Counted from the stretch's first letter, positions 304-59,321 are shown. The stretch is DNA of 64,000 nt from Candidatus Firestoneibacteriota bacterium (GCA_903861835.1 CAIOVX010000027.1:2547-66546), one strand, 5' to 3'. Translations and numbers: made by a program. The notes: generated by a model not told the origin, from the sequence alone.

Positions 304-405
304 TTCCGCCCGCTGTCCACCGACTCCGCCTTCTGTCTTCTGTCTTCCGTCCTCAGTCCTCAGTCTTTAAGCGTCCAACCCTCTAACCATCTAACCTTCC
401 AAGCC
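304..405 (-). repeat. Repeat family D (GGAAGAC/GAGGACT and GGAAGGTT/AGAGGGTT/GGACGCTT units), with a partial family E motif
   Basis: Degenerate 7-8-nt tandem units that begin within the last codons of arsR. Confidence 0.75.
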
Positions 406-729
406 TCAGCATCTAAGGCATTTCTCCCGGCTCACAATCTGCTGCTTAATCGCTGTCTCGCAACAATTCAGAAATGTATTCGCGCAGGATATGTTAAGCG
501 TGTAATAGACATTAAGCCCCTGCTTTCTGCAGGAAACTATCTCCGCGTTTAGCAATTGAGCGAGGTGGCGAGAAACATTGGATCTTTCGGCGTGAACCGC
601 CGGAAATATTTCGCAGACACATTTTTCCCCGCCGCTGAGCAAGTCTACTATCTTAAGGCGTATCGGGTGCGCCAGCGCGGAAAGTATGTCGGCTTGTTTT
701 TGGTAGAGCATATCTGATTTCTTCTTCAT
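406..729 (-). CDS. arsR: ArsR/SmtB family metalloregulator
   Basis: LSALAHPIRLKIV...CVCEI...SNVSRHL winged-HTH pattern; next to arsC. Confidence 0.9.
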   Translation of the reverse strand: MKKKSDMLYQKQADILSALAHPIRLKIVDLLSGGEKCVCEIFPAVHAERSNVSRHLAQLLNAEIVSCRKQGLNVYYTLNISCANTFLNCCETAIKQQIVSREKCLRC

Positions 730-744
730 TTATCAGCCCCTTTG

Positions 745-792
745 CTATGTGATTGAATACTCACATAGTAACATACTAACCAAGGAAGTCAA
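745..792 (-). promoter_or_regulatory. arsR promoter with overlapping inverted-repeat operator
   Basis: Minus strand TTGACT-N16-TACTAT with TG extension; inverted repeat CTATGTGA-N8-TCACATAG at 745-768 overlaps the -10. Confidence 0.65.
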
Positions 793-804
793 GCACAATT
801 TAGC

Positions 805-946
805 AAGCACCAAATTCCAAATCACAAGCACCAAATAAGCAGCAAAATACGAAAAACACAAAGAGCAAAAGGACCTATAACTTCTGTTTTTTTCTTTTTA
901 TCTCTTTTAATTTTATTTGGGATTTGGTGCTTGGAATTTGGTGCTT
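805..946. repeat. Repeat family A palindromic element (AAGCACCAAAT.../...ATTTGGTGCTT)
   Basis: Arms 805-838 and 913-946 are complementary; homologous to 32441-32610 and 59167-59321. Confidence 0.85.
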
Positions 947-1114
947 AGTTTTTGCTCTGTATTTGCTTCATTCCGGAGCGCAATAATCCTTCCCAGATTC
1001 ATATATATTGAAAGGAATGTTGGAATTTGGGTAGTTGGTGCTGAGAGAGGGGAGGAGCGCTCACAAGTGATCCTGGAGCGATTTAGGGCCTATTGGCATT
1101 GCATTTAGTCGCAG

Positions 1115-1130
1115 TGTTTCTCGTGAAACA
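1115..1130. promoter_or_regulatory. parS site
   Basis: TGTTTCTCGTGAAACA, one mismatch to the consensus TGTTTCACGTGAAACA; just downstream of parB. Confidence 0.85.
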
Positions 1131-2955: not shown

Positions 2956-3036
2956 GATTAGAAGGATTAGATAGTGAGATTACGCAGATTAAATCATCTT
3001 TAATCCACAAAATCTCTTTTCCTAATCAGCGTAATC
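2956..3036. repeat. Repeat family B palindromic element (GATTACGCAGATT...AATCTGCGTAATC)
   Basis: Inverted arms; begins 1 nt after the rsmG stop on the minus strand. Confidence 0.8.
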
Positions 3037-3037
3037 C

Positions 3038-3770: not shown

Positions 3771-3941
3771 CACCAAATGCAATACAAATACCAAACACCA
3801 AACAACAAGCACTAAATTCTAAATTCTAAAAAACACCTAAACCCTCAGGGAGCGCTTCGACTGTCGTACCGTATGCCGCGCGAAAGACTTGCTTGCCAGT
3901 TTGCCCTTTGCTTATTGTTTAGAATTTCGCGCTTAGTGCTT
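3771..3941. repeat. Repeat family A, degenerate copy
   Basis: CACCAAA/AAGCACTAAATTCTAAA units with a complementary arm overlapping the mnmG stop. Confidence 0.7.
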
Positions 3942-6222: not shown

Positions 6223-7605
6223 TCACTTTCCTACACAAAACTCAGAGAAAATCCTGTTTATTATGTCTTCAGAGGAGACTCTTCCGGTTATCGCTCCCAG
6301 ATGATCAAGCGCTCCCCTAATATCCAGGGCAATGAACTCTTCTGACATCCCCTTCTTGATTGATTCAAGCGCATTGTCGAGAGAAAGAACGGCGTTTTCG
6401 AGCAAAAGCTTGTGCCTCAGGCTGGTTATGATTATTTCCTCGCTGCCCCTAACCCCTCGCTCATCAACCAGCCGGCGAAGCGCTTTTTTCAATTCTTTGA
6501 TGCCCTTGGCCTTCAGGGCCGAGATATTGATAATCTTTACACCGGGAAGAAGTTTTTCAACTTCTCTTTCCTCAAGTTTCTGTTTAAGGTCGGACTTATT
6601 TATCACAATAAGGGCCTTCTTTCCCCTTGCCCTCTTAGCCGCTTCCCTATCGTCTTTGTTGAGTTTTTCAGAACCGTCAAGCATAAGGATAACGGCGTCC
6701 GCGCTTTCAATGGAATTGAAGGTCCGCTGAATACCTTTTTTTTCAATAAGGTTGGAAGATTCTCTGATACCTGCGGTATCGGAAAGTACGAAGGGCATCC
6801 CCTCAAGGTTTATTCCTTCTTCAATTATGTCCCTTGTCGTCCCGGGCAGGTGGGTGACAATGGCCCGCTCCTCTTCAAGGAGTTCGTTTAGCAGACTTGA
6901 CTTGCCGGCGTTAGGACGCCCGACTATAGAGGTCTTGACTCCTTCCCTAAGAATTTTCCCCGCTCCCGCCGTAGCAAGCAGTTCTTTAAGCCTCTCACGG
7001 GCAGAGGAGAGAGCGCGCGCGGTTACTTTCAGTCCGGCCGCTTCTAAACCTTCTTCCGGAAATTCAATATTTGCTTCCACTTCAACCGCCGCGGATTTTA
7101 TACTTTCCGCGATTTCTTTTAATTCTCCTGAGAGGCGGCCCTTAAGCTGGTTTACCGCCGCGCTCAAACTATCCGACGTTTTCGCTTTTATTATATCCAC
7201 TACCGCTTCTGCCTGGGCCAGATCGATCCTTCCGTTTAAGTAAGCCCTTCTTGTGAACTCTCCCGGCTCCGCGAGGCGCGCGCCAAGAGTTATAGCCGCT
7301 TCCAGCGTCCTGCGCACCGAGACCATTCCCCCGTGGCAATTTATTTCGGCAACATCTTCCCTCGTGTAAGTTTTTGGAGCCTTCATAACGGAAAGAATAA
7401 CTTCGTCAATAATCTTCGAAGTCTTCGGGTCTACGGCGTGGCCGTAATGAATGGTGTAGGAAGGAAGCGCAGCCGCTTTCTTGCCTTGCTTAAGCTTTAT
7501 CAGTTTGCCGGCAATGCTTATTGCCTGCGGCCCGGAGAGCCGGACGATGCCGATGCCGCTTTCACCGGGCGCCGTGGCTATTGCAGCAATGGTATCCTGT
7601 TTCAT
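6223..7605 (-). CDS. mnmE: tRNA modification GTPase MnmE/TrmE
   Basis: DTIAAIAT, GRPNAGKSS, GTTRD, DTAG, NKSD, C-terminal FCVGK. Confidence 0.98.
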   Translation of the reverse strand: MKQDTIAAIATAPGESGIGIVRLSGPQAISIAGKLIKLKQGKKAAALPSYTIHYGHAVDPKTSKIIDEVILSVMKAPKTYTREDVAEINCHGGMVSVRRTLEAAITLGARLAEPGEFTRRAYLNGRIDLAQAEAVVDIIKAKTSDSLSAAVNQLKGRLSGELKEIAESIKSAAVEVEANIEFPEEGLEAAGLKVTARALSSARERLKELLATAGAGKILREGVKTSIVGRPNAGKSSLLNELLEEERAIVTHLPGTTRDIIEEGINLEGMPFVLSDTAGIRESSNLIEKKGIQRTFNSIESADAVILMLDGSEKLNKDDREAAKRARGKKALIVINKSDLKQKLEEREVEKLLPGVKIINISALKAKGIKELKKALRRLVDERGVRGSEEIIITSLRHKLLLENAVLSLDNALESIKKGMSEEFIALDIRGALDHLGAITGRVSSEDIINRIFSEFCVGK

Positions 7606-9629
7606 TTTTTTACTGCCACCTTCAGGGTCTCTGAAATGAGCTTGCCTGTCCAGCCCTTTTCAAAGCCTTTGAGCGGAGCGCCGCCATCGTAAGTGATTAT
7701 TAAGTCATACTCTTTCTCGACGGTGTTTTGAGCCGCAGGAAGCAGCACATACTCTTTTTCAAATGAAACGCCCGGAGCAAGCACCTCTACGCGCTGAGCC
7801 GCTTCCGCCGCCGATAGTTTTTCAGTTTCATCCGCGAACAGCCTTCCGGCAATCAAGCCTTCATAGAAGAGACCAGCGTCAAAACCCAGGGGCCCGCCGG
7901 CGGAGTTAAGGAGATAGGCCTGTTCCGGCGAGTCGTTCTTTATAGAAACCGTTATCTTTATATCTTCACCCGGTTTAAAAATAAGCGCAGTTGCCGGAGC
8001 AGCCAACAGAACCTGCCCCTGGGTTCCCGTATCCGGGGAGTCAAAAAGTGTGCCAAGTTTTTCAGCTTGCAGGCCGTTGAGTCTTGCGCTCTCCGCCTTG
8101 TAGATTTCCCTCTCTTCTTCTTTAATACCGGCAGACGCGGAAAGCGCCGAAAGCTGCTGCAGGGCGCACGGAAGAAGCCCAAGTTTCAGATAGATTTTAT
8201 AAAGCGCCTCTGCGGCAATCCTGAAGCCCGGCGACTCCGCAGGAACTGACTTCAATATATTAATCTCGGGAGCGTATTTTTTAAAGAGTATGCCGGGCGC
8301 ATAAGGATCTAACAGCGCGGCCTCTTCTGCTTTCCCCTCCGGCAGCAGGCAAAGCGCTTTGAGACTTCCGTAATCGCGGTTGTAGGGTTGTTCCATTCCC
8401 GAAACCGACGGGTCATAGGAAGCGAGCCAGCCCAGCGCCTTCTCCCGGTCAAAACCAAGTTCATAATAGTAACGCGCAGCGTCAACATAAGCGGAGAATT
8501 TCCTCTGCCTCATTATCCTTTTCGTTAATTGCCCGCGGAAGGCTTCATCCGAAAAATGTTCGGCGTTAAGCGCGCAGGACTCCCTCCCGGGAACACCGGA
8601 AAGCAGACCAAGCAGTTCAGCGGGCAAAAGATCTAAAGGACAGTAAAGCTTAAGCGCCTCGACCGGGTCAAGACTCATCAAGGCGCGAAAACCCGGCAGC
8701 ATATTATTTTTATCGGCGAGGAGAGCAAGAAGCTCTCCTTTGACGCGAACATCTTTCAGGACGGCAAGAGCAGTAAGCATATAGAAGGAGGCGTTTTCCG
8801 CGCCTGTTTGAACCAAAAGCGTCGCTGCTGAGCCGGCCGTCTGAGCGGCCGGAGACTTTAATTCAAGATAAGCTGCATAGAGCGCCTCCGCTCCGTCCGG
8901 CAGGGTTACAAGCTCCTTCCCGCAAAGCTCGCAGAAGTAAAACTGCTTCTTCCCGGCCTTCTCTTTCAGCGCTTCGCAATATTTTTGCGCCCTCACGCTT
9001 CCGGGCTGATCCTTCAGTTCTGTTTTAAGTTTTAGGAATTCTATGGCATCGCGGGCTGCCGCGCGGACAGGATAATAATCCCTTCTCTGCGCGTAGCGGT
9101 CGTAAAGGAGCGGGGTAAAATACTGGCTGGCTCCGCCGTCAGCCGTTTCCATAAGGGCCTTTAAGGCGGATAATCTGACACCTGAACTTCTGTCTTTTAA
9201 GGCCTGCCGAAAAGTGCCGGCCGCAGCTTCAGGCGCCGCCGCAGAGAGAGCTTCTATAATTCTTTGCCTGAAGAAACCGTTCTTAAGATCGGCGAGGAGA
9301 TATTCGAGGTCGTTTAAATTCTGCGAGCCGCGGTTCAGAAGTTTTTTTAGTTCGGGGTTAGGTTCGGTCACGGTAAAACCGGCTTCGGGAAGATCCAGCG
9401 TGTCGCGGTCGGCAGCCCGTATACTTTCTATGAGCCTGTCCGCTTCTTTCGCGGCGTCATCGTCGCGCCCTTTAAGCCAGGCGGTTTTCAGTACGGAACC
9501 CGCAGAGGCGGTGTCAGCCGCCATTATTCTGGGATCGAGAGACTGCTCTCCGGTCACATCCCCTTCCGGCGCCGCAAGCAGCAGCGCCGGAAGCAGGACC
9601 TGTATGAACAGGAGAGTGGTTTTTTTCAT
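7602..9629 (-). CDS. Secreted HEAT/alpha-solenoid hypothetical protein, 675 aa (start revised to ATG 9629)
   Basis: MKKTTLLFIQVLLPALLLA signal peptide; HEAT-like ALKDRSSGVRLSALKAL and YPVRAAARDAI; stop overlaps the mnmE start. Confidence 0.7.
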   Translation of the reverse strand: MKKTTLLFIQVLLPALLLAAPEGDVTGEQSLDPRIMAADTASAGSVLKTAWLKGRDDDAAKEADRLIESIRAADRDTLDLPEAGFTVTEPNPELKKLLNRGSQNLNDLEYLLADLKNGFFRQRIIEALSAAAPEAAAGTFRQALKDRSSGVRLSALKALMETADGGASQYFTPLLYDRYAQRRDYYPVRAAARDAIEFLKLKTELKDQPGSVRAQKYCEALKEKAGKKQFYFCELCGKELVTLPDGAEALYAAYLELKSPAAQTAGSAATLLVQTGAENASFYMLTALAVLKDVRVKGELLALLADKNNMLPGFRALMSLDPVEALKLYCPLDLLPAELLGLLSGVPGRESCALNAEHFSDEAFRGQLTKRIMRQRKFSAYVDAARYYYELGFDREKALGWLASYDPSVSGMEQPYNRDYGSLKALCLLPEGKAEEAALLDPYAPGILFKKYAPEINILKSVPAESPGFRIAAEALYKIYLKLGLLPCALQQLSALSASAGIKEEEREIYKAESARLNGLQAEKLGTLFDSPDTGTQGQVLLAAPATALIFKPGEDIKITVSIKNDSPEQAYLLNSAGGPLGFDAGLFYEGLIAGRLFADETEKLSAAEAAQRVEVLAPGVSFEKEYVLLPAAQNTVEKEYDLIITYDGGAPLKGFEKGWTGKLISETLKVAVKK

Positions 9630-9634
9630 TGGCC

Positions 9635-16530: not shown

Positions 16531-16597
16531 GATTGCGCAGATTAGAAAGTCAGCTTACACGGATTAAAGCAGCGGTTTATCGGAAGCAGAGCGTAAT
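16531..16597. repeat. Repeat family B, mostly left arm
   Basis: GATTGCGCAGATT...TTACACGGATT. Confidence 0.65.
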
Positions 16598-16630
16598 AAT
16601 ATTTCATAAGAAGTAAAGGGGTCAGTTTAA

Positions 16631-19809: not shown

Positions 19810-19894
19810 GTTCTTAACGTTCTTAACGTTTGTAACGTAAACCGCCGTGGACTCTTTTAGCTTTACGTTATGAACCTTATAAACGTTATAAACG
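19810..19894. repeat. Repeat family C palindromic element (9-mer TAACGTTYR units)
   Basis: (AACGTTCTT)n AACGTAAA ... TTTACGTT (ATAAACGTT)n. Confidence 0.85.
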
Positions 19895-19938
19895 ATATTA
19901 TAGTTTATGTTTTTATAGTTGTGTTTTAGGAGGCCCTT

Positions 19939-21575: not shown

Positions 21576-21617
21576 TCAGAAGGATTTCCAAGAGAGATTA
21601 CGCAGATTAAAGCAATC
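21574..21617. repeat. Repeat family B, left arm overlapping the ispD TGA
   Basis: TGATCAGAAGGATTTCCAAGAGAGATTACGCAGATT. Confidence 0.7.
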
Positions 21618-21675
21618 ATGCGGCGTAGAGAGATTGCAATCCAAGGTTTCGCATCAGGGTCGCCGGGGGGTTGTT

Positions 21676-23703: not shown

Positions 23704-23813
23704 TGTTTTTAACGTTCTTAACGTTTGTAACGTTTATAACGTAAACCAGGTCCTTGTTTTGCAATTGACTTACGTTATAAACGTTATGAACCTTATAAAC
23801 GTTACAAACTTTT
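23701..23813. repeat. Repeat family C palindrome bridging two convergent stop codons
   Basis: Left arm starts at the DUF72 TAA; right arm contains the GNAT TAA. Confidence 0.85.
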
Positions 23814-25642: not shown

Positions 25643-25917
25643 AGTTTATAACGTTCATAACGTTTGTAACGTAAACAGGAAAAGCAAAAGTTTATAAGCC
25701 ACAGCTTCGCTGTGTCTTGTTTTGATAGGTAGGATATATTTCATGCCAGACTACGTCTGGCATAGCAAAATAACGTTCATAACGTTTATAACGTTTGTAA
25801 CGTAAACAGGAAAAGCAAAAGTTTGTGGTTTGTAAAGTTTGTAAGGTTTATAAGCCGCACTTCGTGCGTCTTGTTCAATAAAAAGTTCATAAGGTTCATA
25901 AAGTTTGTAACGTAAAC
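25643..25917 (+). repeat. Repeat family C, tandem duplicated left arms with embedded small hairpins
   Basis: Two copies of TAACGTTTGTAACGTAAACAGGAAAAGCAAAAGTTT...; hairpins at 25700-25714, 25743-25763, 25856-25868. Confidence 0.85.
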
Positions 25918-26005
25918 ATTAAAGACTAGAAAACAAACGTTCTTAGTGTTAACAGAAAAGATCAGAAACAACAGAAAGTGTGAACAAAGTGGGGATGAAA
26001 TTTTA

Positions 26006-26929: not shown

Positions 26930-27008
26930 ATTGCGCAGATTATAAAAGAGATTGCACGGATCAGGATACGGATTAATACGTGTAAGCGCCCTCGAAATCC
27001 GCGTAATC
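26929..27008. repeat. Repeat family B palindrome overlapping the GGDEF TAG
   Basis: TAGATTGCGCAGATT...AATCCGCGTAATC. Confidence 0.8.
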
Positions 27009-27027
27009 AGGTTTCAAAGGGGACAAA

Positions 27028-28661: not shown

Positions 28662-28675
28662 GAGTTTATGCGCTT

Positions 28676-28776
28676 GTGCCAAAGAACACCCCGCCATTCA
28701 TGGCGGGGATGAATTTGGCACGAATAATGTTTACAATACAGCAGAGACACCCCGGACTTTAGGCCGGGGAGGCTCA
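28676..28776 (+). mobile_element. Transposase-less IS200/IS605-like miniature element (left- and right-end hairpins only)
   Basis: CCCCGCCA-TTCA-TGGCGGGG inside an outer stem GTGCCAAA/TTTGGCAC, then CCCCGG-ACTTTAGG-CCGGGG-AGGCTCA. Confidence 0.6.
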
Positions 28777-28975
28777 TAACGTTCATAAGGTTTATAAGGT
28801 TTATAACGTTAATAACGTAAAGCAAAAGCAGACCAAATTCAAAAGTTCGTGACGTTTGTAACGTAAATCAAAGGCATCAGGGTTTGCCTTACGTTATGAA
28901 CGTTATAAACGATATTTGCTCAAACCAAATGTTTTCGTTACAAACGTTATTAACGTGAAGAACGTTATAAACCTT
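28777..28975. repeat. Repeat family C, nested double palindrome
   Basis: Two left arms followed by two right arms of 9-mer units. Confidence 0.85.
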
Positions 28976-32440: not shown

Positions 32441-32610
32441 TATTAAGCACCAAATCTCAAGTACCAAGCACCAAATAAACACCAAAAAGGCAAAAGTTAA
32501 AAGTGTTTAAAAGTTATTTGTGTTTGGTTCTTTTTATTTTATTTGGGATTTGGTGCTTGGAATTTGTGATTTAGGTTTAGGTGATTTGGTGCTTGTGATT
32601 TGAGATTTGA
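32441..32610. repeat. Repeat family A palindromic element
   Basis: Near reverse-complement copy of 59167-59321. Confidence 0.9.
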
Positions 32611-33416: not shown

Positions 33417-34061
33417 ATGCCCGTCGAAAAACACTCCACATATTTCAATATGCTGGATGTCCTAAAAGAAAAGGGCTGTCCCTATTGCCGCCTTTCAGAC
33501 AAATCAGCGCACTCTTATTTTGACGCTTTTCTTTTTGAGAATGTGACCGACCGCGAGGTCAGCAAAAAACTGCGCTCTTCCGGCGGTTTCTGCCGGGAGC
33601 ATTCCGCGAAGTTCCTCGAATTCAACGATACCCTCGGCGCGGCAATTGTCTACGAATCTCTTATTTACGACCTCCTGAATGAAAAAAAAGAAAGTCTTTC
33701 GCTTAAAAGCGGAGCCTGTCCGGCTTGCGCCGTTTCTAAAGAAGCGGAAGAAAGGCACCTGAAAACTTTCGAACCCTATTTTGCCGAGCCGGAGTTCGCG
33801 GAGGCCTATCTGGTTTCAGAGGGTTTCTGCATTTCCCACTTGAAACTGTTACTGCCAAAGATTAAGAAGGAATCCGTCCTGAAGAAAGTCATTGAGAAGG
33901 AAAGGCAGACCCTGGAAAAACTTCACTCAGAATTACTGGAATTCCTCAGAAAGAACGATTACCGTTTCTCAAAGGAAGAGTGGGGCGCGGAGAAGGACAG
34001 TTGGAGAAGGGCGATTGGGAAGTTTGTGGGAGAAAGAAAAGTAAGACAAAAAAGTTTGTAA
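33417..34061 (+). CDS. Duplicated CxxC...CxxH hypothetical protein (DUF6062-like)
   Basis: GCPYC...GGFCREH and ACPAC...EGFCISH; DYRF...E.DSW.RAI. Confidence 0.7.
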   Translation: MPVEKHSTYFNMLDVLKEKGCPYCRLSDKSAHSYFDAFLFENVTDREVSKKLRSSGGFCREHSAKFLEFNDTLGAAIVYESLIYDLLNEKKESLSLKSGACPACAVSKEAEERHLKTFEPYFAEPEFAEAYLVSEGFCISHLKLLLPKIKKESVLKKVIEKERQTLEKLHSELLEFLRKNDYRFSKEEWGAEKDSWRRAIGKFVGERKVRQKSL

Positions 34062-34325
34062 CGTTCGTAACGTTTATAACGTAAAGCAAATGTACGAAAC
34101 AAAGAGGACGGTGGACGGAAGACAGAGGACAGTAGGCTGAGGGTCAGAAGGTCAGATGCTCAGTAAGGCGGAAGGTTAGAGGGTTGGATGCTTGGATGCT
34201 TGGATGCTTAAATGCCAGCAAAGATGAGATGATGCGCGGAAGGGCAGTAATGAAGAGGGCTGAGGACGGAAGACGGAAGACGGAAGACAGAAGACAGATG
34301 ACAGTAGTCAGTGGACAGAAGAAGG
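34050..34325 (+). repeat. Repeat family C left arm (34050-34085) followed by a family D tract
   Basis: TAACGTTCG/TAACGTTTA units, then GGACGGAAGACAGAGGACAG and GGAAGGTTAGAGGGTTGGATGCTT units. Confidence 0.8.
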
Positions 34326-36670: not shown

Positions 36671-37172
36671 ATTAGAATGATTAGAAAAAGAGATTACGCA
36701 GATTAGAGTGAGCATGGATTGAAACCGAGAAATCTATTTTTGTAATCTGAGTAATCAAACAATTCTTGTTGAGAAGTTGATTAAAGGGATCAGCGAAAGC
36801 AATTACGCAGATTAGAGTGAGCGGGGTTTAATCTGTGTAATCGGTTTAAGTAATCCGTGTAATCATTTTTGTTTTTTAAGCGGGACGCCTATCCCGCTTA
36901 TTGGGTGCGGCGGAGGGCTGTGATGGCCCTTCGCCACCCTCCCTTAAAGGCGGAAGGTTAGAGGGCTGGAAGGTTAGAGGGCTGGAAGGTTGGAAGGTTG
37001 GATGATTGGACGTTGGAGTGAAGGAGCCTGAGGACGGAAGACGGTAGACAGAAGGGCAGATGCTCGGATGCTTAAAGGCCAGCATGGCTGGAGGAAATGG
37101 GCGTGTGGACGGAGGACCGTTAGAACATTTGAGTCTTTAATTAGCAATCAGCAATCCGACGGAGTCGGCGGA
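36671..37172. repeat. Repeat mosaic in the B12 leader: two family B palindromes, two GC hairpins, family D, family E
   Basis: B 36671-36756 and 36779-36864; hairpins 36877-36900 and 36909-36935; D 36951-37120; E 37137-37172. Confidence 0.8.
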
Positions 37173-37183
37173 GCGGCAGACGG

Positions 37184-39815: not shown

Positions 39816-39819
39816 AGGT

Positions 39820-39905
39820 GATTAGAGGGATTAGGAAAGGAGATTACGCAGATTAGAGGGGGCATGGTTTAATCTGTATAATCGGTTTTAGTAATCTGCG
39901 TAATC
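39820..39905. repeat. Repeat family B palindrome
   Basis: Close homologue of 36779-36864. Confidence 0.85.
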
Positions 39906-39922
39906 ATTTTAATGGAGGAGAG

Positions 39923-40459: not shown

Positions 40460-40720
40460 AAAAGTTTGTAAAGTTTATAAGGTTTGTAAGGTTAATAAGG
40501 TATGAGTATTTAATTAGTAATCAGTAATCATCAATAAGCAATCCGACGGAGTCGGCGGACAGAGGACAGAGGACAGTGGGCAGAAGACGGCATGTCCTAG
40601 GGATCTTTAATTAGTAATTAGAAATCATCAATCAGTAATCCGACGGAGTCGGCGGACGCGCAGTAGAATAAAAATAGCAAACATAATCTGAGTAATCGAA
40701 CTTTCTAAATCCGTGTAATC
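40460..40720. repeat. Repeat mosaic C-E-D-E-B between cobO and cobT
   Basis: C left arm 40460-40500; E 40510-40560 and 40607-40657; D 40557-40590; B right arm 40684-40720. Confidence 0.8.
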
Positions 40721-40739
40721 ATTTATCAAAGGAGACGAA

Positions 40740-41786: not shown

Positions 41787-41791
41787 TGATA

Positions 41792-41863
41792 AGAAGGTTG
41801 GAGGGTTGGATGCTTAAAAAACGGCAATAACTAACCCTCTAAACATCCAACCGTCCAAGCATC
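41792..41863. repeat. Repeat family D palindrome
   Basis: GAAGGTTGGAGGGTTGGATGCTT ... AACCCTCTAAACATCCAACCGTCCAAGCATC. Confidence 0.75.
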
Positions 41864-41879
41864 AAAACGGAGTGATTTT

Positions 41880-42401: not shown

Positions 42402-42490
42402 TAACGTTCTTAACGTTCGTAACGTAAAGCAGCACATCCGGCGGTTGCCTTACGTTATAAACCTTATAAACGATACAAACGTTATAAACG
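42393..42490. repeat. Repeat family C palindrome overlapping the cobU stop
   Basis: AAAAGT TAA TAA CGT TCT TAA CGT TCG TAA CGT AAA ... TTACGTTATAAACCTTATAAACG. Confidence 0.85.
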
Positions 42491-47176: not shown

Positions 47177-47200
47177 GAAGAAACCCTCCTGTAGCGAGCC

Positions 47201-47226: not shown

Positions 47227-47368
47227 GCGGGGAAATACATATTGCATTTAGCTACCTATTGTGTTATATTTTCCGAAACATTAAGGTTTTGCGCCTGTTT
47301 GAAAGGCGCGAGGCCGGGTTCAAGGGCCGGAAAGAACGCCGTGTTCTGCGGTTGGCCCGGGAGAAACC

Positions 47369-48904: not shown

Positions 48905-48948
48905 CAGGATGCAGTTTCTCGCGTCCGGACTTAAGGAGGAACCTAAAA

Positions 48949-49089
48949 GTGCTTTACTGTTGCGAAGAATGCCAGAGTTATGAACAGTGCAGCGAGTCAG
49001 GGTCTCTGCTTGAAGGCTGCTGCAAAGAGTGCTGTTATTTTGAAGAATGCCACGGAGGGGAGGGTGATAATGAACAAGAAGATGAATAA
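48949..49089 (+). CDS. Unannotated 46-aa acidic Cys-rich miniprotein
   Basis: AAGGAGG at 48933-48939, GTG 48949; MLYCCEECQSYEQCSESGSLLEGCCKECCYFEECHGGEGDNEQEDE; end overlaps the DksA start. Confidence 0.7.
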   Translation: MLYCCEECQSYEQCSESGSLLEGCCKECCYFEECHGGEGDNEQEDE

Positions 49090-49537
49090 AAAAGCCGGCC
49101 GAGGGAAAAAAGTGCCGTCTAAAACAAAAAAGATAAAAATCAAAAAGGTTAAAATTACCCCCAGAGCAAAACCGGCCCCCAAGGTCAGAAAACTGCTGAA
49201 ATCGGAAATCAAACATTACCTGTCAATGCTGTACGAAAAGAAAAAGAATGTTCTTGAGGAACTGAACAAGCATCTTGATGACGGGAAAAAGATAGAGTTT
49301 AACGAGGTTAAAGATTCGGTCGACCTGGCTACCGACACTTACGACACGGAATTTCTCCACAACCTCTCAGATACAGAAAAGAAACTGCTGGAAGATATAG
49401 ACTTCGCGATAGAAAAAGCCGAGAAAGGCGATTACGGCGGCTGCGACACTTGCGGCAAGCCGATCAGCAAGGAAAGGCTTGAAGCGCTGCCTTTCTCCAA
49501 GAACTGTATAACGTGTCAGACGAAAAAAGAGATATAG
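49070..49537 (+). CDS. DksA/TraR family transcription factor with basic N-terminal tail (start revised to ATG 49070)
   Basis: Coiled-coil tip DSVDLA (DxxDxA); Zn finger CDTC...RLEALP...CITC. Confidence 0.88.
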   Translation: MNKKMNKKAGRGKKVPSKTKKIKIKKVKITPRAKPAPKVRKLLKSEIKHYLSMLYEKKKNVLEELNKHLDDGKKIEFNEVKDSVDLATDTYDTEFLHNLSDTEKKLLEDIDFAIEKAEKGDYGGCDTCGKPISKERLEALPFSKNCITCQTKKEI

Positions 49538-52080
49538 TTCCGGAACTGTATATTGTAGACGGTAATTCCTACGCCTACAGGTCTTACTATGCCATAAAGA
49601 ACCTGACCACCTCAAAGGGCAAACCCGTGAATGCGGTATTCGGGTTTGCCCGTTTGCTTTTTAAGATACATAAGTCGGTAAAGCCTGCCTATGTAGCCGT
49701 GGCTTTTGATACGAAACATAAGACTTTCCGCCACGAGGCGCTCAAGGAATATAAGGCCGAGCGCCAGCCCACTCCCGAAGACCTGCTTGAGCAGATGAAA
49801 GACATTAAGGAAATGCTTTCCGTCTTCGGCATTAAGGCTCTGGAATTGCCGGGCTTTGAGGCGGATGACATACTTATGCTTCTCTCGGGAAAGGCAAAAA
49901 AAGCCGGCATTAAAACAACCATTCTGACCGGAGACAAGGATATGCTGCAGCTCGTGGACGACGGCAGGGTCAGGGTGGAAAGCGTAAATAAGGACGGCTA
50001 CTATTACGACGCCGCGAAAGTTAAAGAAAAATACGGTGTAACTCCCGGACAGATGATTGATTATCTCGCGCTCGCGGGAGACGCTTCGGACAACATCCCC
50101 GGGGTGCCGGGAATAGGTGAAAAGACCGCCTCCGCACTGCTTGAAAAATATCACAGCCTTGACGGAGTGCTTGAGAACGCGCCGAAAATAGAAAAAGAAG
50201 GCTTGCGGAACCGCCTGCTTGAAAATAGGGAAATAGCTCTCCTCTCCAGGAAACTTGCGACTCTGGTGGAACCGCCGCTTGAGCTTGAAATGAACGACCT
50301 GGTCCTGAAGCATCCTGATACTCCCAAGCTTGTTGAATTCCTGAAAGGGATGGAATTTATGAGCATGCTCCGCGAAGCAAAAGAGATATTCGGAGTAGGC
50401 AGCGCTTTCGAGGGCGGACTTTTTGAGCAGGCGCCGGAGTTTGAAACAAGGGAAAGAATAGAAGTAACCGGGACAAAAGAACTCGAAACTGCGGAAAAAG
50501 AACTGAAAGGAACGGTAAATATTATATTTGCCGGCGGAAAACTCTTATTATCCTCCTCGGAAGAAAAATTCTTTTCTTTTGAGCCGTCTTTTAAGGGTCT
50601 CACTAAACTGCTTGAGGGAAAGAAGGCGGTCAGCTTCGGCTATAAAGAGTGCTGGTTGGAACTTCACAGGCAGGGGATTATTCCTCCTACGCTTGACTAC
50701 GACTGCTATATAGCCGCCTATCTTCTCAATCCCGATAAGGCGAATTACGGCGCCCCGCAAATAATAAATGCCATGCTGAATATTGTGCCTGACGAGCCCT
50801 CTGTGGTATGTTTTCTAGGCAGGCTAAAGGCGGCTCTTGCCGGAGAGATAGAAAAGAGGGGTCTGGATAAACTTTTGCGCGAGGTGGAACTTCCGCTTAT
50901 TCCGGTGCTTGGCGGAATGGAAGCCGCGGGCATCAAACTTGACCTCCCGCTCCTGAAGAAGATTTCAAAGGAGCTGGATGTGAAACTCGAAGGGTTGGTA
51001 AAACATATTTACCTGCTCGCAGGAGAGGAATTCAATATCAACTCGCCTCAGCAACTCTCGAAGATACTTTTTGAGAAACTGAAACTTCCGGTAGTGAAAA
51101 AAATAAAGACGGGGGCTTCAACGGATGTCGAAGTGCTTGAAGAACTTTCCGCGAAGTCTGAACTCCCTGCGGTCCTGCTGGATTACAGGCAGATATCAAA
51201 ACTTAAGAACACATACATTGACGCCCTGCCTGAACTCGCCGATAAAACAACACACAAGGTTCACACCCATTACAACCAGGCGGGAACGGGCACCGGAAGA
51301 CTTTCAAGTTTTAATCCCAACCTGCAAAACATTCCCATCCGGTCGGAACTGGGCAGGGAAATACGCAAGGCCTTTATCCCGTCCGAGAAAGGCTGGAGAA
51401 TGGCGGCGGCGGATTATTCCCAGATAGAACTCCGAATACTCGCTCATTTTTCGGAAGACTCGAACCTGATAAGGGCTTTTAAGGAAGATGCTGATATTCA
51501 TACCAGGACCGCCATGGAAATATTTGATATGGCGGAAGAGATGGTCACCTCCGACGAGAGAAGAGTGGCGAAGACAGTTAACTTTGGGATAATTTACGGC
51601 ATAACGCCTTTTGGCCTTTCAAGGCAGTTAAAGATACCCGCCGCGCAGGCGAAAAAATACATAGACAGTTATTTTACAAAGTACCCGCAGGTAAAACAAT
51701 TTATGGCGGATGCCGCCGAGAAGGCGAGAAAACTGGGCTACGCCGATACGCTGCTCGGCCGCCGCAGGTATATCCCGGATATCAACAGCAAAAATAAGAC
51801 CGTCGCGGAAGGCGCGGCCAGGGTTGCTATAAACATGCCGGTCCAGGGTTCGGCTTCTGATATAATAAAACTGGCGATGCTTCGCGTCGCTGAGCGCCTG
51901 ATAAAGGATAAGTTTAAAGGGCGCATGCTTCTGCAAGTGCACGACGAACTGGTATTTGAATGCCCGGCAGAGGAAGAAAAGCAGCTGATCGCGGCGGTAA
52001 AGCACGAGATGGAAAATGTAGTTGTTCTTAAAGTGCCGCTCAAGGTTGATATTGAATCGGGAGATAACTGGGGTGAATAG
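49513..52080 (+). CDS. polA: DNA polymerase I
   Basis: 5'-3' exonuclease VDGNS..YRSYY, GDASDNIPGVPGIG; polymerase DYSQIELR, AKTVNFGIIYG, QVHDELV. Confidence 0.97.
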   Translation: MSDEKRDIVPELYIVDGNSYAYRSYYAIKNLTTSKGKPVNAVFGFARLLFKIHKSVKPAYVAVAFDTKHKTFRHEALKEYKAERQPTPEDLLEQMKDIKEMLSVFGIKALELPGFEADDILMLLSGKAKKAGIKTTILTGDKDMLQLVDDGRVRVESVNKDGYYYDAAKVKEKYGVTPGQMIDYLALAGDASDNIPGVPGIGEKTASALLEKYHSLDGVLENAPKIEKEGLRNRLLENREIALLSRKLATLVEPPLELEMNDLVLKHPDTPKLVEFLKGMEFMSMLREAKEIFGVGSAFEGGLFEQAPEFETRERIEVTGTKELETAEKELKGTVNIIFAGGKLLLSSSEEKFFSFEPSFKGLTKLLEGKKAVSFGYKECWLELHRQGIIPPTLDYDCYIAAYLLNPDKANYGAPQIINAMLNIVPDEPSVVCFLGRLKAALAGEIEKRGLDKLLREVELPLIPVLGGMEAAGIKLDLPLLKKISKELDVKLEGLVKHIYLLAGEEFNINSPQQLSKILFEKLKLPVVKKIKTGASTDVEVLEELSAKSELPAVLLDYRQISKLKNTYIDALPELADKTTHKVHTHYNQAGTGTGRLSSFNPNLQNIPIRSELGREIRKAFIPSEKGWRMAAADYSQIELRILAHFSEDSNLIRAFKEDADIHTRTAMEIFDMAEEMVTSDERRVAKTVNFGIIYGITPFGLSRQLKIPAAQAKKYIDSYFTKYPQVKQFMADAAEKARKLGYADTLLGRRRYIPDINSKNKTVAEGAARVAINMPVQGSASDIIKLAMLRVAERLIKDKFKGRMLLQVHDELVFECPAEEEKQLIAAVKHEMENVVVLKVPLKVDIESGDNWGE

Positions 52081-52672: not shown

Positions 52673-52735
52673 TTACACCGATAAAAACGGATGGACTATC
52701 TCTGTAACCGGTTGAAAATAGGTGTCATCAATCTA

Positions 52736-53358: not shown

Positions 53359-53512
53359 GATTACGCTGATTAGATAAACAGATTACGCAGATTATACCAT
53401 CTTTAGTTAATAACAGAAATATCAAAAATGATTACGCGGATTCAGCAAACAGATTACGCAGATAAAAGAATTCTTTAATCCGTGTAATCGTATTTCCATA
53501 ATCTGCGTAATC
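53359..53512. repeat. Repeat family B (two left arms, one right arm)
   Basis: GATTACGCTGATT / GATTACGCAGATT twice, then AATCCGTGTAATC / AATCTGCGTAATC. Confidence 0.85.
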
Positions 53513-53611
53513 ACCATGCTTTTCGAGCGCTTTTGCTTGAAAACAATCTGAGTTAGTGATAATATCTCACGAGTATCGCGCGCGCAGCGGTTTGCCGCAA
53601 AAGGAGCAATA

Positions 53612-54541: not shown

Positions 54542-54575
54542 ACAAAAAACGTTCATAACGTAAAGCGGGAAGATG

Positions 54576-56043: not shown

Positions 56044-56089
56044 AATATCTTCCTGATAGAAAGTAAATATAGGTTTGATATAATGAAAC

Positions 56090-57058
56090 ATGCGGATAAC
56101 GGTAATTGGCGGAACGGGACATATTGGAACCTATCTTGTGCCGAAGCTCGTTGAGCTGGGGCATGACGTAACTGTGGTTTCCAGGGGAAAAAGGGAGCCT
56201 TATCGCCCTGATCCGGCCTGGAATTCCGTAAAGACGCTGAATATTGACCGCTCCCGCGCGGAGAAAGAAGGAATATTCGGAAGGCAGATTGCAAATACAA
56301 AGGCAGATGCGGTCATTGACCTGCTCTGCTTTACGGAAAAAAGCTGCAGGGAGCTCACCGCAGCGCTCCGGGAAATGACCGGACACCTGTTGCATTGCGG
56401 AAGTTTGTGGGTCTTCGGGCACAGCGCGGTCGTTCCTGCGTCGGAAGAAGAACCGAAAACCCCAATTTGCGAGTACGGAAAAGAAAAGCTGGCCATTGAG
56501 AAATACCTGCTCGGCGAAGCTGGCGCAAAAGGCTTTCCAGCAACCGTACTGCACCCCGGGCACATATCCGGTCCCGGCTGGATTCCCATAAATCCGGCGG
56601 GGCATATTTCGCTGAACGTTTTTGAGCGGCTTGCCGGGGGCGAGGAGCTCCTGCTGCCTAACTTCGGAATGGAAACCCTGCATCACGTCCATGCCGCGGA
56701 TGTCGCGCAGGCCTTCATAAAAGCGCTGATCAACAGGCCCGCTGCGCTGGGTGAAAGTTTTAATGTTGCGTCGCCCGCCGCCCTCACTATGCGCGGTTAT
56801 GCAGAAGCTGTTGCGGCGCACTTTGGCAGAGAAGCAAATCTGAAATTCGCGCCTTTTGCTGAATGGGAAAAGAGTGAGACTCAAGAAGCAGCCGGAATAA
56901 CGCTGGACCATATGCTCCACAGCCCGAACGCGTCCATAGAAAAGGCGGTTAAGGAACTCGGCTATGAACCAAAATATTCCTCGCTCGAAACTATTTTTGA
57001 AGCACTTGGGTGGCTTATAGAGAACGGGAAAATCCGAATCAAAAGAGAGGCATTATGA
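56090..57058 (+). CDS. NAD-dependent epimerase/dehydratase
   Basis: GGTGHIG, YGKEK (YxxxK). Confidence 0.88.
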   Translation: MRITVIGGTGHIGTYLVPKLVELGHDVTVVSRGKREPYRPDPAWNSVKTLNIDRSRAEKEGIFGRQIANTKADAVIDLLCFTEKSCRELTAALREMTGHLLHCGSLWVFGHSAVVPASEEEPKTPICEYGKEKLAIEKYLLGEAGAKGFPATVLHPGHISGPGWIPINPAGHISLNVFERLAGGEELLLPNFGMETLHHVHAADVAQAFIKALINRPAALGESFNVASPAALTMRGYAEAVAAHFGREANLKFAPFAEWEKSETQEAAGITLDHMLHSPNASIEKAVKELGYEPKYSSLETIFEALGWLIENGKIRIKREAL

Positions 57059-57759
57059 AAAAGCTGGTTGTTATACTCGCCGTCGTGGCCGCGGTTTTTT
57101 CATTCCTGCAGGCAAAACAGGGAGGCAATTATATGGACCTTCTCAAGAACATACACTGGCTTGGGCACGACACCTTTAAAATAAAAGCCGGCGGGAAAGT
57201 TATTTATATTGACCCTTTTCAGATCAGGTCGTCTGAGAAAGCCGACCTGATTTTAATAACGCATCCCCATCACGACCATTTTTCCCCGGAAGATATTTCG
57301 CAGATAAGCACTCCTGATACGCTGGTGGTTTCTATTGCCGGAGTCCTTAAGGACATGAATTGCTTGACCCAGGAAGTCAAAGCAGGAGACAAGCTTCTAG
57401 CCGCCGGTTTCAAGGTTGAGGTTATCCCGGCCTACAATATTGACAAAAAGTTCCATCCTAAAGAGGCAGGCATGGTCGGCTATATCCTTACAGCCGGCGG
57501 AGTAAGAATCTATCACGCGGGGGACACGGATCTTATCCCGGAAATGAAGAAACTTAAAGTTGATGTGGCTTTACTTCCCGTATCGGGCACTTATGTGATG
57601 ACCTCCGAGGAGGCCGCGCAAGCGGCAAACCTTATAAAGCCTAAGGTTGCAGTTCCGATGCATTATGGATCAATAGCCGGAAGCGAGGCTGACGCGAAAA
57701 GATTCGCAGATAAACTTAAGGGAAAAGTAGATGTAGTGATAATGCATCGGGAAAAGTAA
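57055..57759 (+). CDS. Metallo-beta-lactamase fold hydrolase (starts at ATG 57055 and/or ATG 57133)
   Basis: WLGH, THPHHDH, YHAGDT, PMHYG. Confidence 0.88.
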   Translation: MKKLVVILAVVAAVFSFLQAKQGGNYMDLLKNIHWLGHDTFKIKAGGKVIYIDPFQIRSSEKADLILITHPHHDHFSPEDISQISTPDTLVVSIAGVLKDMNCLTQEVKAGDKLLAAGFKVEVIPAYNIDKKFHPKEAGMVGYILTAGGVRIYHAGDTDLIPEMKKLKVDVALLPVSGTYVMTSEEAAQAANLIKPKVAVPMHYGSIAGSEADAKRFADKLKGKVDVVIMHREK

Positions 57760-57789
57760 CGTTTTTGCTAAACGGAGAGGAGAGGCTCA

Positions 57790-58365
57790 ATGCTTGAAGA
57801 CCTGAAAGGTAAAGTGTGCGCGGCGAACAAGGAACTCGTGAAACAGGGCCTGGTAATTTCTACAATAGGCAATGTAAGCGGGCGAGACAGCCGTAAAGAA
57901 TATGTGGTCATTAAACCCGAAGGAGTGTCTTACGAAGAGATGACTCCTGCAGATATGGTGGTAACAGACTTAAACGGGGAAGTGGTGGAAGGCCTTCACC
58001 AACCGTCCGGGTACATTCACGCGCATTGTTTTGTTTACAAGCACAGGAAGGATGTCGGCGGGATTGCTCACACGCATTCCCCTTACGCCACCAGTTACGC
58101 CGTGCAGGGAAAGCCAATCCCGGCATTGCTTATTCCGCAGGTCGCGAATTTCGGCGGAGATATTCCTGTAACACAAAAATACGATATGAAGCAGAAGTAC
58201 GGCATAGGTTCCGCGCTGGTCAAGGCCATGAAGAATAATAACGAGAAGGCGGTTATTTTGAACAGGCACGGGGTCTTCACCTTTGGCAATGACTCCGCAG
58301 AAGCGGTAAAATACGCCGCGCTCGTGGAAGACCTAGCAAAAACCTACAGGGCGGCCGGCAAATAA
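57790..58365 (+). CDS. Class II aldolase/adducin family protein (AraD-like)
   Basis: GNVSGR, IKPEGV, HTHSPYAT, NRHGV. Confidence 0.85.
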   Translation: MLEDLKGKVCAANKELVKQGLVISTIGNVSGRDSRKEYVVIKPEGVSYEEMTPADMVVTDLNGEVVEGLHQPSGYIHAHCFVYKHRKDVGGIAHTHSPYATSYAVQGKPIPALLIPQVANFGGDIPVTQKYDMKQKYGIGSALVKAMKNNNEKAVILNRHGVFTFGNDSAEAVKYAALVEDLAKTYRAAGK

Positions 58366-59168
58366 TGGAACTAATTGATGTCCACGCGCATTTCTTTCCC
58401 GACAATATCGCTCCTGCAACTATAGATTTTCTGGAAAAAGAGGCGGACATAAAGGCATTTGGGGCGGGAACAGCTGCTTCGCTTCTTGAAGAAATGAAAC
58501 GCGACGGTGTAACGCTTTCTATCAATGCCCCGGTGGCTACAAAGAAAGAGCAGGTCATAAGCATCAATAGAAGGATGATAGAGTTTAATAAAACAAGCAA
58601 AGAAATAATCTGCTTCGGCTCGATGCATCCCGATTTTTATCAGATCGGCAACATAGAGGAGGAGATCTCCTATATAGCGAAGAACGGCATAAAAGGCATA
58701 AAACTTCACTCCGAGTACCAGAGTTTTTATCCCGACGAAGACCGGCTCAAACCTGTCTATGAAGCCTGCGTTAAGCACCAAATAATAATTCTTTTTCACG
58801 CCGGCGTTGATTTCGCGTATGAAACGGAAGTAAAAGCGACACCTCAACGCTTAAGCGGCGTGGTTAAGCTCTCCGGATTGAGAACGATTCTCGCGCACTT
58901 CGGCTCCTACAGGCAGTGGGACGAGGTTATGAAATATCTTTCAGGGACTCCCGCGTATTTTGACACCGCGTATTCCGCGGAGGTTGCGCCGGAAACCTGC
59001 AGAAACTTAGTCAAGTCGCACGGGGAAGATAAGATACTTTTTGGGACGGATTTTCCGTGGCAGACGGCCGCGATGGTAAAGGGGATGTTGGAAAGGTCGG
59101 GATTATCTAAGGACGCGTTGGAGAAGATATACTGCAAAAATGCAACAAAACTGCTTGGTTTGCAGTAA
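58365..59168 (+). CDS. Amidohydrolase_2 family metal-dependent hydrolase
   Basis: DVHAH, GIKLH, FHAG, LAHFG, LFGTDFP. Confidence 0.88.
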   Translation: MELIDVHAHFFPDNIAPATIDFLEKEADIKAFGAGTAASLLEEMKRDGVTLSINAPVATKKEQVISINRRMIEFNKTSKEIICFGSMHPDFYQIGNIEEEISYIAKNGIKGIKLHSEYQSFYPDEDRLKPVYEACVKHQIIILFHAGVDFAYETEVKATPQRLSGVVKLSGLRTILAHFGSYRQWDEVMKYLSGTPAYFDTAYSAEVAPETCRNLVKSHGEDKILFGTDFPWQTAAMVKGMLERSGLSKDALEKIYCKNATKLLGLQ

Positions 59169-59321
59169 GCACGAAATCACCTATGCCTAAATCACAAATT
59201 CCAAGCACCAAATCCCAAATAAAATAACAAAAATAAAACTGCAAAATAACTTTTAAATGCTTTGTTCTTTTGTATTTTGGTCTTTATTTGGTGCTTGGTG
59301 CTTGTGATTTGGTGCTTAATA
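59167..59321. repeat. Repeat family A palindromic element overlapping the amidohydrolase stop
   Basis: Near reverse complement of 32441-32594. Confidence 0.9.

Follow-up and report, generated by a model that had tools for sequence, protein, structure and literature searches.

Which kind of element occupies so many gene junctions in a 64,000-nt stretch of DNA from the uncultivated lake organism Candidatus Firestoneibacteriota bacterium (hereafter the window; positions 2547-66546 of contig C27 in genome G000)? The original prediction, made from the sequence of the window, listed about 30 intergenic sites with short-unit repeats of five families (A-E), often arranged as two complementary arms, and proposed that they are non-autonomous or empty forms of a mobile or RNA-processing system. 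Here, these elements were analyzed in the window, in the complete set of G000 contigs (2.18 Mb, 103 contigs, 98% complete) and in other genomes, all of which are metagenome bins. Relatives are designated G001-G011 and so forth, C-numbers denote contigs of G000, and L-numbers denote loci. We consider it probable (roughly 0.6) that the window elements, many of which have a single arm, are related to a mobile hairpin gene cassette of the type known as intervening sequence (IVS) but lack its cargo.

Repeat elements of the window

The motifs of the five families were present at all 30 listed coordinates. Tandem arrays were determined with the program TRF. Arrays with a period of 7, 8 or 9 were reported at sites of families A, C, D and E, as expected from the predicted unit length of 7-9 nt, but at none of the ten family B sites, where the unit is a word of 13-16 nt of the GATTACGCAGATTAG type rather than a tandem repeat of 7-9 nt.

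To assess folding, 20 window elements were each compared with 200 dinucleotide shuffles. Thirteen of them reached z-scores of -3.8 or lower with none of the shuffles folding as well; hairpins of this class start at positions 805, 2956, 19810, 23704, 28845, 32441, 36671, 36779, 39818, 41790, 53429 and 59185. Element 42402 had a z-score of -3.09 (1/200 shuffles). Most two-armed elements thus fold far better than shuffled sequence. No hairpin was detected by folding at 16531 (z -0.8), 21576 (z -1.8), 26930 (z -1.6), 34100 (z -0.8), 36951 (z -0.9), 52673 (z -0.2) and 40510 (z -1.85). The predicted arrangement as two complementary arms accordingly applies to families A, B and C, whereas in the window most elements of families D and E are direct arrays with a single arm, the sole D hairpin being located at 41790-41868. 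About half of the elements in the window are two-armed. Membership of site 52671 in family B was not supported (Table 1); sites 16531 and 21574 do contain family B words, but in degenerate or one-armed form.

The view that the elements are not CRISPR was corroborated, as units are contiguous without spacers and no CRISPR hit was obtained with Rfam. The Rfam scan of the window returned the cobalamin riboswitch only, and no family was found for the hairpins or for the additional repeats N1 and N3 described below. A scan of positions 30001-50000 for intrinsic terminators, which admits only loops of 3-8 nt and would exclude the family hairpins from the outset, flagged none of them. Some right arms of family B terminate in TTTT.

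Small genes between inverted arms

Among the 56 window proteins none matched a transposase, a four-helix-bundle or a GxxExxY family, so that the window elements can at most be cargo-less forms. The predicted absence of mobility and cargo genes therefore holds for the window but not for the genome. G000 has four hits to PF05635 and one to PF13366, which were confirmed by NCBIfam as TIGR02436 (96-117 bits) and TIGR04256 (124 bits), respectively. All five genes lie between inverted arms of the same family (Table 1) and are oriented in the same direction as their neighbor genes. Filled copies hence exist, and the link between such arms and four-helix-bundle or GxxExxY genes, which the original prediction had put forward for other bacteria, was found in G000 as well as in other genomes.

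A full cassette consists of (i) a left tandem array, (ii) a ribosome-binding site and one small gene coding for either a TIGR02436 four-helix-bundle protein (S23p/Avd family) or a TIGR04256 GxxExxY protein of the PD-(D/E)XK type, and (iii) a right array complementary to the left one. The GxxExxY open reading frame (ORF) begins immediately behind the left arm and terminates at a stop codon within the right arm; this gene thus occupies the exact tip of the hairpin. Cassette arms and gene-less hairpins belong to the same unit families. Complementary flanks were present at 12 of 1727 genes tested in G000. The layout forward arm-gene-reverse arm without extra arms was confined to cargo genes, apart from a Y1 transposase gene with a repeat of its own. 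Genes located between arms in the reverse-gene-forward order (an ArfB-like gene on C89, an MvhD-like gene on C90, a DAHP synthase gene on C9, and others) were discarded as cargo; they are ordinary genes between two separate elements.

The cassette on C91 is positioned directly upstream of a tRNA gene (probably tRNA-Tyr, judging the anticodon by eye) near the end of the contig. The four-helix-bundle gene at C38:16484 is apparently broken by a copy of repeat N2 (see below) which is flanked by the direct repeat TTTCA; the latter would represent a target-site duplication.

Exchange of cassettes between lineages

Two junctions were informative with regard to mobility. The rfbF-rfbG junction is pristine in G009, where the stop codon of rfbF overlaps the start codon of rfbG (TAGATG). 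It is filled with a D-armed four-helix-bundle cassette in G000, G001 and G004 and with a diverged cargo allele flanked by different arms (GGATGCGC) in G002 and G003, while G005 and G007 carry degraded copies. The junction between the PaaK and ACT genes harbors a B-armed GxxExxY cassette in G000, G002 and G004, an 80-nt D-type array instead in G001 and G003, and 9-mer hairpins in four genomes of family f3; in the latter family a GxxExxY cassette is found behind a paralogous PaaK gene.

Nucleotide identity of the four-helix-bundle cassettes of G000 and G001 was 99.4%, compared to 83.9% and 92.3% for the flanking rfbF and rfbG genes. The corresponding values for G000 and G004 were 92.0% (cassette), 73.4% (rfbF) and 65.5% (rfbG), and those for the GxxExxY cassette of G000 and G002 were 98.5% (cassette) and 86.3% (PaaK). 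Likewise, synonymous divergence (pS) was 0.02, 0.03 and 0.22 in the cargo genes versus 0.52-0.75 in host genes, i.e. 3- to 30-fold lower in the cargo. These contrasts demonstrate that the cassettes share a much more recent ancestry than their hosts. The ratio of nonsynonymous to synonymous divergence (pN/pS) of the four-helix-bundle gene was 0.18. In the comparison of G000 with G004, the drop in identity coincides with the outer end of each arm. Between G000 and G001 the tract of high identity runs approximately 65 nt into rfbF and 200 nt into rfbG, which resembles a recombination tract. The cassette is thus a discrete DNA unit, bounded by the outer arm ends and sense-oriented in the gap between operon genes, and it was exchanged between lineages far more recently than the host genes diverged. 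On this point, the postulated mobile system is supported by the divergence data.

In the filled rfbF-rfbG alleles, RfbG (CDP-glucose dehydratase) has a new N-terminus encoded by the right arm; it reads MVRSVVLPNIQTSKRPTFW... as compared to MPSINSGFW... in pristine G009. This rewritten start is located at C38:3837-3910 (L031) in G000, and at loci L032-L035 and L041 in relatives.

Gene-less elements at orthologous junctions

The cobalamin operon is syntenic throughout the order, and five of its junctions (J1-J5) were compared in relatives. Taken together with the two cassette junctions above, orthologous junctions were found to be pristine, filled, or occupied by another family, which amounts to presence/absence polymorphism. 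At J3 (window 41787-41879), where the window has its D 8-mer hairpin, units of six other families occur in seven relatives, and two further relatives have essentially nothing. A GATGCGCA 8-mer hairpin of near-equal length is present in G001 and G002, whose flanking protein is 97-98% identical; G004 has a 9-mer hairpin, G011 AAGTACR 7-mers, G007 GTCCATAAA 9-mers, G006 ATGACTA 7-mers and G009 a single arm, while G008 has almost nothing and G005 just an 11-nt gap. J5 is empty in the window and contains hairpins in G004, G006 and G011. At J4, G001 and G002 differ by one 9-nt unit. Replacement of one family by another among gene-less elements was seen at junctions J1-J5. Identity between G000 and G002 was 57% in element-bearing gaps, 71-73% in element-free gaps and 71-92% in genes. 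Gene-less elements are thus replaced quickly, and close relatives carry different families at one and the same junction.

An insert of approximately 1.05-1.14 kb at J2 in G007, G009 and G011 was considered as a cassette and rejected, as it contains an ordinary ORF of about 225 amino acids with an SGGKDS motif (by eye). In family-f3 relatives this additional ORF, which looks ATP-pyrophosphatase-like by eye, lies between cobO and cobT (L009:9716-10853, L010:4745-5814, L012:9452-10501); G000 lacks it.

Recurrence in other genomes

Species-representative genomes were searched with a profile of five four-helix-bundle proteins, which yielded 523 relatives. Of the best 80, which were kept, 72 were usable, and 39 of these 72 loci from many phyla had complementary flanks (inverted-repeat score of at least 12), compared to 0/72 with shuffled flanks and 2/72 in a direct-repeat control. 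The arms at these loci mostly have a period of 7. In 31 genomes of the phylum, PF05635 occurred in 19 (0-11 copies each, several with stop codons) and PF13366 in 14. Arms were present at 15 of 28 four-helix-bundle loci and at 17 of 21 GxxExxY loci of this sample, and their units match the gene-less elements of the respective genome. Arms of GxxExxY loci tend to resemble family B or contain CACCAAG words that recall family A, a resemblance only. In a small, non-independent sample, strict non-coding arrays (TRF score of at least 40 and at least three copies) were detected in none of five cargo-less genomes (366 kb) and in three of five cargo-bearing genomes (389 kb). For comparison, 14 such arrays are contained in the 64 kb of the window.

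Abundance and orientation of arms in the genome

A census of motif clusters in G000 yielded 443 arms, 388 of which are non-coding although coding sequence makes up about 90% of the genome, compared to 18 arms in a shuffled control. Elements occupy 180 of 1546 co-directional junctions, and in these the first arm starts at a median distance of 15 nt from the stop codon. Arm density per kb was 1.76 in co-directional, 2.41 in convergent and 0.87 in divergent gaps. In a strict ungapped search, 114 non-coding hairpin loci were detected, 65 of which belong to families A-E. The forward-type arm is on the left in 62 of these 65 classified hairpins, as it is in all five cassettes. The commonest layout in the 180 occupied junctions is a solo sense arm: a family C arm alone in 51 cases, a D 8-mer arm alone in 10 and a D 7-mer arm alone in nine. 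Gene-less and one-armed forms together outnumber filled ones by roughly two orders of magnitude.

Only five family C arms are found in lagging-strand contexts, and the effects of transcription and replication on orientation are therefore inseparable. Stem mismatches in 109 co-directional short-loop hairpins comprised 52 sense G.U pairs, 52 antisense G.U pairs and 141 others. There is no sign of pairing being kept only in the sense RNA; this symmetry fits arms that were made as inverted DNA copies. No target-site duplication was seen for arrays.

A search for sequencing runs containing this DNA gave ten DNA runs from four studies and no RNA run. In four DNA runs, Logan contigs stop at the arrays and assemblies break there; array-array joints are repeat artefacts, and read-depth peaks at arrays arise because the repeats are multi-copy. 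The one readable variant in these runs is an 8-nt insertion after position 40649 in one lake sample.

Origin of the gene-less elements

Under the reading that we favor, gene-less hairpins would either originate when the cargo is lost from the hairpin tip or spread as non-autonomous copies, and unit numbers would then drift by slippage. Arm complementarity would be generated at the DNA level, by inverted duplication or templated repair, and would not be held by selection on the sense RNA. As the elements are co-transcribed with operons, the stems of 20-60 bp are probably also substrates of RNase III, by analogy with the arms of 23S rRNA intervening sequences. The cargo proteins probably recognize or cut the arms. 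That empty elements derive from cassettes is the part of the original prediction that we infer, because no junction showed filled and empty alleles with arms of the same family.

Several observations weigh against this interpretation. One-armed arrays outnumber hairpins, and sense arms exceed antisense arms in co-directional junctions (90:35 for family C, 29:4 for D 8-mers, 33:0 for D 7-mers), a bias that random arm loss would not produce. Copies within one family share units, but neither loops nor whole-length sequence (by eye), unlike miniature inverted-repeat transposable elements (MITEs) or REPINs (hairpins formed by repetitive extragenic palindromic (REP) sequences). For family A and the D 7-mers no filled copy was found in G000, and the loops of empty hairpins did not contain recognizable cargo remnants by eye. 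G008 (94% complete, 8 kb of it outside the search) has junction arrays, but neither a four-helix-bundle nor a GxxExxY gene was detected there, and the density of arrays at the loose TRF threshold does not track the presence of cargo, most rows at score 30 being background. A chimeric contig in the metagenome bins could mimic the exchange tract of G000 and G001; the comparison with G004 is less exposed to this problem. Finally, to our knowledge a mobility function has been demonstrated for neither cargo family, and no reverse transcriptase that could be a partner of an Avd-like protein was found in G000.

The alternative that survives best, although we regard it as rather unlikely, holds that the arrays came first. 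Slippage-prone long-unit microsatellites of the type known as STRR (short tandemly repeated repetitive sequences) or long simple sequence repeats (LSSR) would grow in place after stop codons on the sense or leading strand; hairpins would form by fold-back templated synthesis, and the cargo genes would be separate selfish genes with a preference for existing hairpin loops. The predominance of solo sense-strand arms, the orientation bias of the D 7-mers and D 8-mers and the short distance between stop codon and first arm are all expected on these grounds, as are the one-unit difference at J4, the insertion in the lake sample, the position of cargo exactly at the hairpin tip and the occurrence of arrays in G008. 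Arrays that precede the cargo do not explain, however, why the conserved unit shared by G000 and G004 has its limits at the outer arm ends and not at the loop, why the arm family co-varies with the cargo allele at one junction, or why the pristine rfbF-rfbG junction of G009 is devoid of any array. The lack of strict arrays in the five sampled cargo-less genomes points in the same direction, and point mutation plus slippage cannot swap a whole family at one junction (J3) next to a protein with 97-98% identity.

It is improbable that the elements are host-beneficial RNA elements maintained by selection on operon expression, with hairpins acting as intercistronic RNase III sites or 3'-end stabilizers, purine-rich arrays acting as ribosome standby sites, and the cargo being incidental. 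Their location inside operons, right after stop codons and before the next ribosome-binding site, would suit such a role, as would the stable stems, the presence of an RNase III gene in G000, the GGAGG/GAAGG words contained in the D 8-mers and the lower arm density in divergent (promoter) gaps. A beneficial element would be expected to persist, whereas the elements are not conserved at orthologous junctions, where their gaps are less similar than element-free gaps, and some relatives have nothing at the same place; in addition, sense-strand G.U pairs are not in excess and no Rfam family matches. A REP/REPIN-type system mobilized in trans by a Y1 transposase similar to REP-associated tyrosine transposases (RAYTs) is largely refuted: the elements are indeed palindromic, intergenic and multi-copy and G000 has one PF01797 gene (C49:7738-8073), but this gene is flanked by its own perfect 22-nt inverted repeat (C49:7388-8244) which has only three genomic occurrences and no relationship to families A-E, and a single REP consensus does not accommodate five unrelated arm families that vary in unit number.

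Comparison with known systems

The cassettes most closely recall the intervening sequences of 23S rRNA genes, in which a small ORF of the PF05635/TIGR02436 family is surrounded by a long stem of complementary terminal arms (PMC4990558, PMC11270868). In Coxiella burnetii, RNase III cuts the 28-bp stem formed by the terminal inverted repeats. An S23p ORF is enclosed by this stem, and in front of the ORF lie tandem GACAGAT heptamers in strain-dependent number, a feature paralleled by the tandem units beside the cargo gene (PMC4990558). ORF-bearing 23S rRNA intervening sequences are also cited for Leptospira (PMC4990558), and the four-helix-bundle family occurs in rRNA insertions of bacteria of the candidate phyla radiation (PMC11270868). 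Their sporadic distribution has been read as horizontal transfer, and ORF-less forms exist (PMC4990558, PMC11270868). The elements described here differ in several respects. All of them lie between protein-coding genes of operons or, in one case, beside a tRNA gene and none inside rRNA, and true 23S rRNA intervening sequences were thus dismissed; their arms are whole arrays of 7-9-nt units from at least five families; GxxExxY is a second type of cargo; and gene-less or one-armed forms dominate.

Direct heptamer repeats (TAACTGA) have been described in Beggiatoaceae, Cyanobacteria and Bacteroidetes with no link to a cargo in the available text, which does not mention S23 or 23S (PMC4679880); similar heptamers are reported from Nostoc (bioRxiv 10.1101/2022.06.06.494920). 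Like the arrays of G000, they are intergenic, have 7-nt units and an orientation bias relative to genes, may overlap stop codons, are unexplained in function and are suspected to spread horizontally (PMC4679880, bioRxiv 10.1101/2022.06.06.494920). Only one of 170 repeat sets of the Beggiatoa genome is inverted (PMC4679880), in contrast to the present case, where two-armed hairpins make up half of the window elements and a cargo gene is associated with the arms. The 'global regulator sites' of Geobacter metallireducens are intergenic and multi-copy, consist of four to five tandem heptanucleotides, mostly in inverted pairs, and were drawn as looping strands; they were read as regulator-binding sites, and a cargo gene is not mentioned in the accessible text (PMC2700814). 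REP sequences with their derivatives BIMEs (bacterial interspersed mosaic elements) and REPINs, and MITEs as well, share with the present elements that they are abundant, palindromic, intergenic, non-autonomous and probably related to an autonomous gene-bearing form. They differ in that the present elements show no association with RAYTs, lack a full-length consensus and have arms made of variable tandem arrays. The Pfam family of the four-helix-bundle cargo resembles Avd, the accessory protein of diversity-generating retroelements (PMC10053308), and one four-helix-bundle allele gave a weak match to the Avd model (27 bits versus a cut-off of 80). A diversity-generating retroelement was rejected, as G000 has neither template nor variable repeats and no reverse transcriptase (RVT_1) was found in the 98%-complete genome. 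In the literature accessible to the search, no description was found of four-helix-bundle or GxxExxY genes between repeat arms outside rRNA.

As intergenic tandem arrays of units in the 5-11-nt range with copy-number variation (J4 in G001 and G002), the arrays qualify as STRR-like long-unit simple repeats.

Significance

Heptamers and similar short-unit intergenic repeats of bacteria have been catalogued for decades, and we know of no accepted explanation of their origin. The S23p/four-helix-bundle and GxxExxY families are among the commonest proteins of unknown function. In G000 the repeats and both families are tied together, and the pristine, filled and replaced alleles provide comparative evidence that gene and arms move as a block into operon junctions.

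Tentatively, it may be proposed that hairpin cassettes with four-helix-bundle and GxxExxY genes form one widespread, hitherto undescribed class of selfish DNA, the 'intervening sequences' of operons. The arms would serve both as recognition site of the cargo and as homology arms; the GxxExxY nuclease, or a four-helix-bundle protein that binds arrays, would act on hairpins or cruciforms of the same family, with homing of the cassette by arm-templated repair. Decay and slippage of arms would be the origin of heptamer and STRR-type repeats in many bacterial phyla, and the arm debris in about 12% of the operon junctions of G000 would be the end state. If the favored reading of the window elements holds, it would account for a large share of the intergenic 'junk' in several phyla and for the breaks of metagenome assemblies at gene junctions of such organisms. 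Both protein families would then have a role open to experiment, in that they would bind or cut their own arms.

Elements and further features of the window

The window contains a replication-origin neighborhood (parB, parA, rsmG, mnmG, mnmE, yidC and rnpA, then dnaA, dnaN, recF, dciA and gyrB; Pfam analysis of the 56 window proteins), with a sign change of the GC skew near 12 kb. The origin genes are followed by housekeeping genes and then by a cobalamin-salvage operon behind the cobalamin riboswitch (36371-36565; Rfam). Between mnmE and yidC, a 755-amino-acid ORF on the minus strand (7602-9869) has no Pfam match at E <= 1e-5 and may overlap the yidC ORF call (9635-11275).

Table 1. Repeat elements of the window and gene-bearing cassettes of G000. 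Positions are those of the window unless a contig is given; fractions are shuffles folding as well as the element.
Position	Strand	Element	Evidence and remarks
304..396	-	Family D direct arrays (7-mers, then 8-mers), one-armed	Sense, downstream of ArsR-type gene 406-729(-); TRF 330-367 (period 7), 377-396 (period 8)
805..946	.	Family A hairpin, AAGCACC/AAATYCC heptamers, long A/T-rich loop	z -6.23, 0/200; inverted repeat 804-822/915-933
2956..3037	.	Family B hairpin, parA/rsmG junction	z -4.11, 0/200
3771..3932	.	Family A array, weak distal pairing, mnmG/rsmG junction	TRF 3785-3830; fold of 3809-3932
16531..16600	+	Degenerate family B words, no hairpin	z -0.84, 42/200
19810..19900	.	Family C hairpin, TAACGTTYR nonamers	z -4.55, 0/200; TRF
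21576..21633	+	Family B left arm only	z -1.83; sequence
23704..23801	.	Family C hairpin, 40-nt arms with 34 matches, convergent junction	z -6.19; inverted repeat
25643..25945	+	Composite: family C arrays broken by 74-nt repeat N1 (~25690-25765) and partial second N1	TRF 25644-25977
26930..27010	.	Family B-like weak hairpin	z -1.59, 15/200
28662..28782	+	Dispersed non-coding repeat N3, ~120 nt, nested hairpins, beside family C arms	blastn copies on C87, C84, C33 and other contigs; no Rfam match
28774..28915	.	Family C array and hairpin (28845-28915)	z -5.75; TRF
32441..32609	.	Family A hairpin, gltX/bacA junction	z -4.64, 0/200
34054..34082	+	Family C left arm alone, sense strand, begins at stop codon	TRF; sequence
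34103..34322	+	Family D purine-rich direct arrays (7- and 8-mers), no hairpin	TRF; z -0.79
36671..36760	.	Family B hairpin	z -3.81, 0/200
36779..36870	.	Family B hairpin	z -5.81, 0/200
36952..37060	+	Family D direct arrays, GGAAGGTT 8-mers, then 7-mers	TRF score 81; z -0.86
37137..37183	+	Family E array, then CCGACGGAGTCGG mini-hairpin	Sequence
39818..39908	.	Family B hairpin, ABC ATPase gene/cobO, junction J1	z -5.90; other families or nothing in relatives
40464..40501	+	Family C left arm alone, junction J2	TRF
40510..40650	+	E array, D 7-mer array, second E array, all direct	TRF; z -1.85
40684..40730	+	Family B right arm alone, just before cobT ribosome-binding site	Sequence; same layout in G001
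41790..41868	.	Family D 8-mer hairpin, cobT/cobU, junction J3	z -5.32
42402..42490	.	Family C hairpin beginning with cobU stop codon TAA, junction J4	z -3.09, 1/200
52673..52735	+	Listed as family B; unsupported as member or hairpin	z -0.19, 79/200
53359..53513	.	Family B words, then strongest B hairpin (53429-53513)	z -8.74, 0/200
54548..54566	+	Family C remnant, two units	Sequence
59185..59320	.	Family A hairpin	z -7.41, 0/200
C42		Four-helix-bundle cassette	Family C arms
C91:151158-151818 (L002)		Four-helix-bundle cassette	Family E arms outside, 6-mer AAAGCA/TTTGAC array inside
C38:3442-3840		Four-helix-bundle cassette	D 8-mer arms
C38:16484-16789		Four-helix-bundle cassette	D 8-mer arms
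C9:21980-22360		GxxExxY cassette	Family B arms

In the window, an identical small hairpin, CCGACGGAGTCGG, comes after every family E array (37150-37170, 40540-40556 and 40637-40653), and this pairing of array and mini-hairpin recurs on contig C73; the two may form one composite unit.

Further, three structured non-coding repeats were found in association with family C. N1 is a dispersed repeat of 74 nt with 56 full-length copies of 77-90% identity, sometimes in tandem, the one in the window being accompanied by others in G000 such as C21:30-184, C62:3968-4118 and C77:58-206. Its insertion point is the TAA of the family C unit (GTTTATAA|...|CGTT). It contains two small hairpins that vary by compensatory changes, and a related element is present in family C-type arrays of family-f3 relatives (L009, L010). 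N1 looks like a MITE-like miniature mobile element that targets nonamer arrays. N2 and N3, which are related to each other, measure approximately 110-130 nt, form nested hairpins and lie beside or inside family C arms. Copies of N3 in G000 outside the window include C87:16661-16774, C84:267-394 and C33:1315-1475; those of N2 are located on C11 and at C22:53969-54056 and C38:16330-16480.

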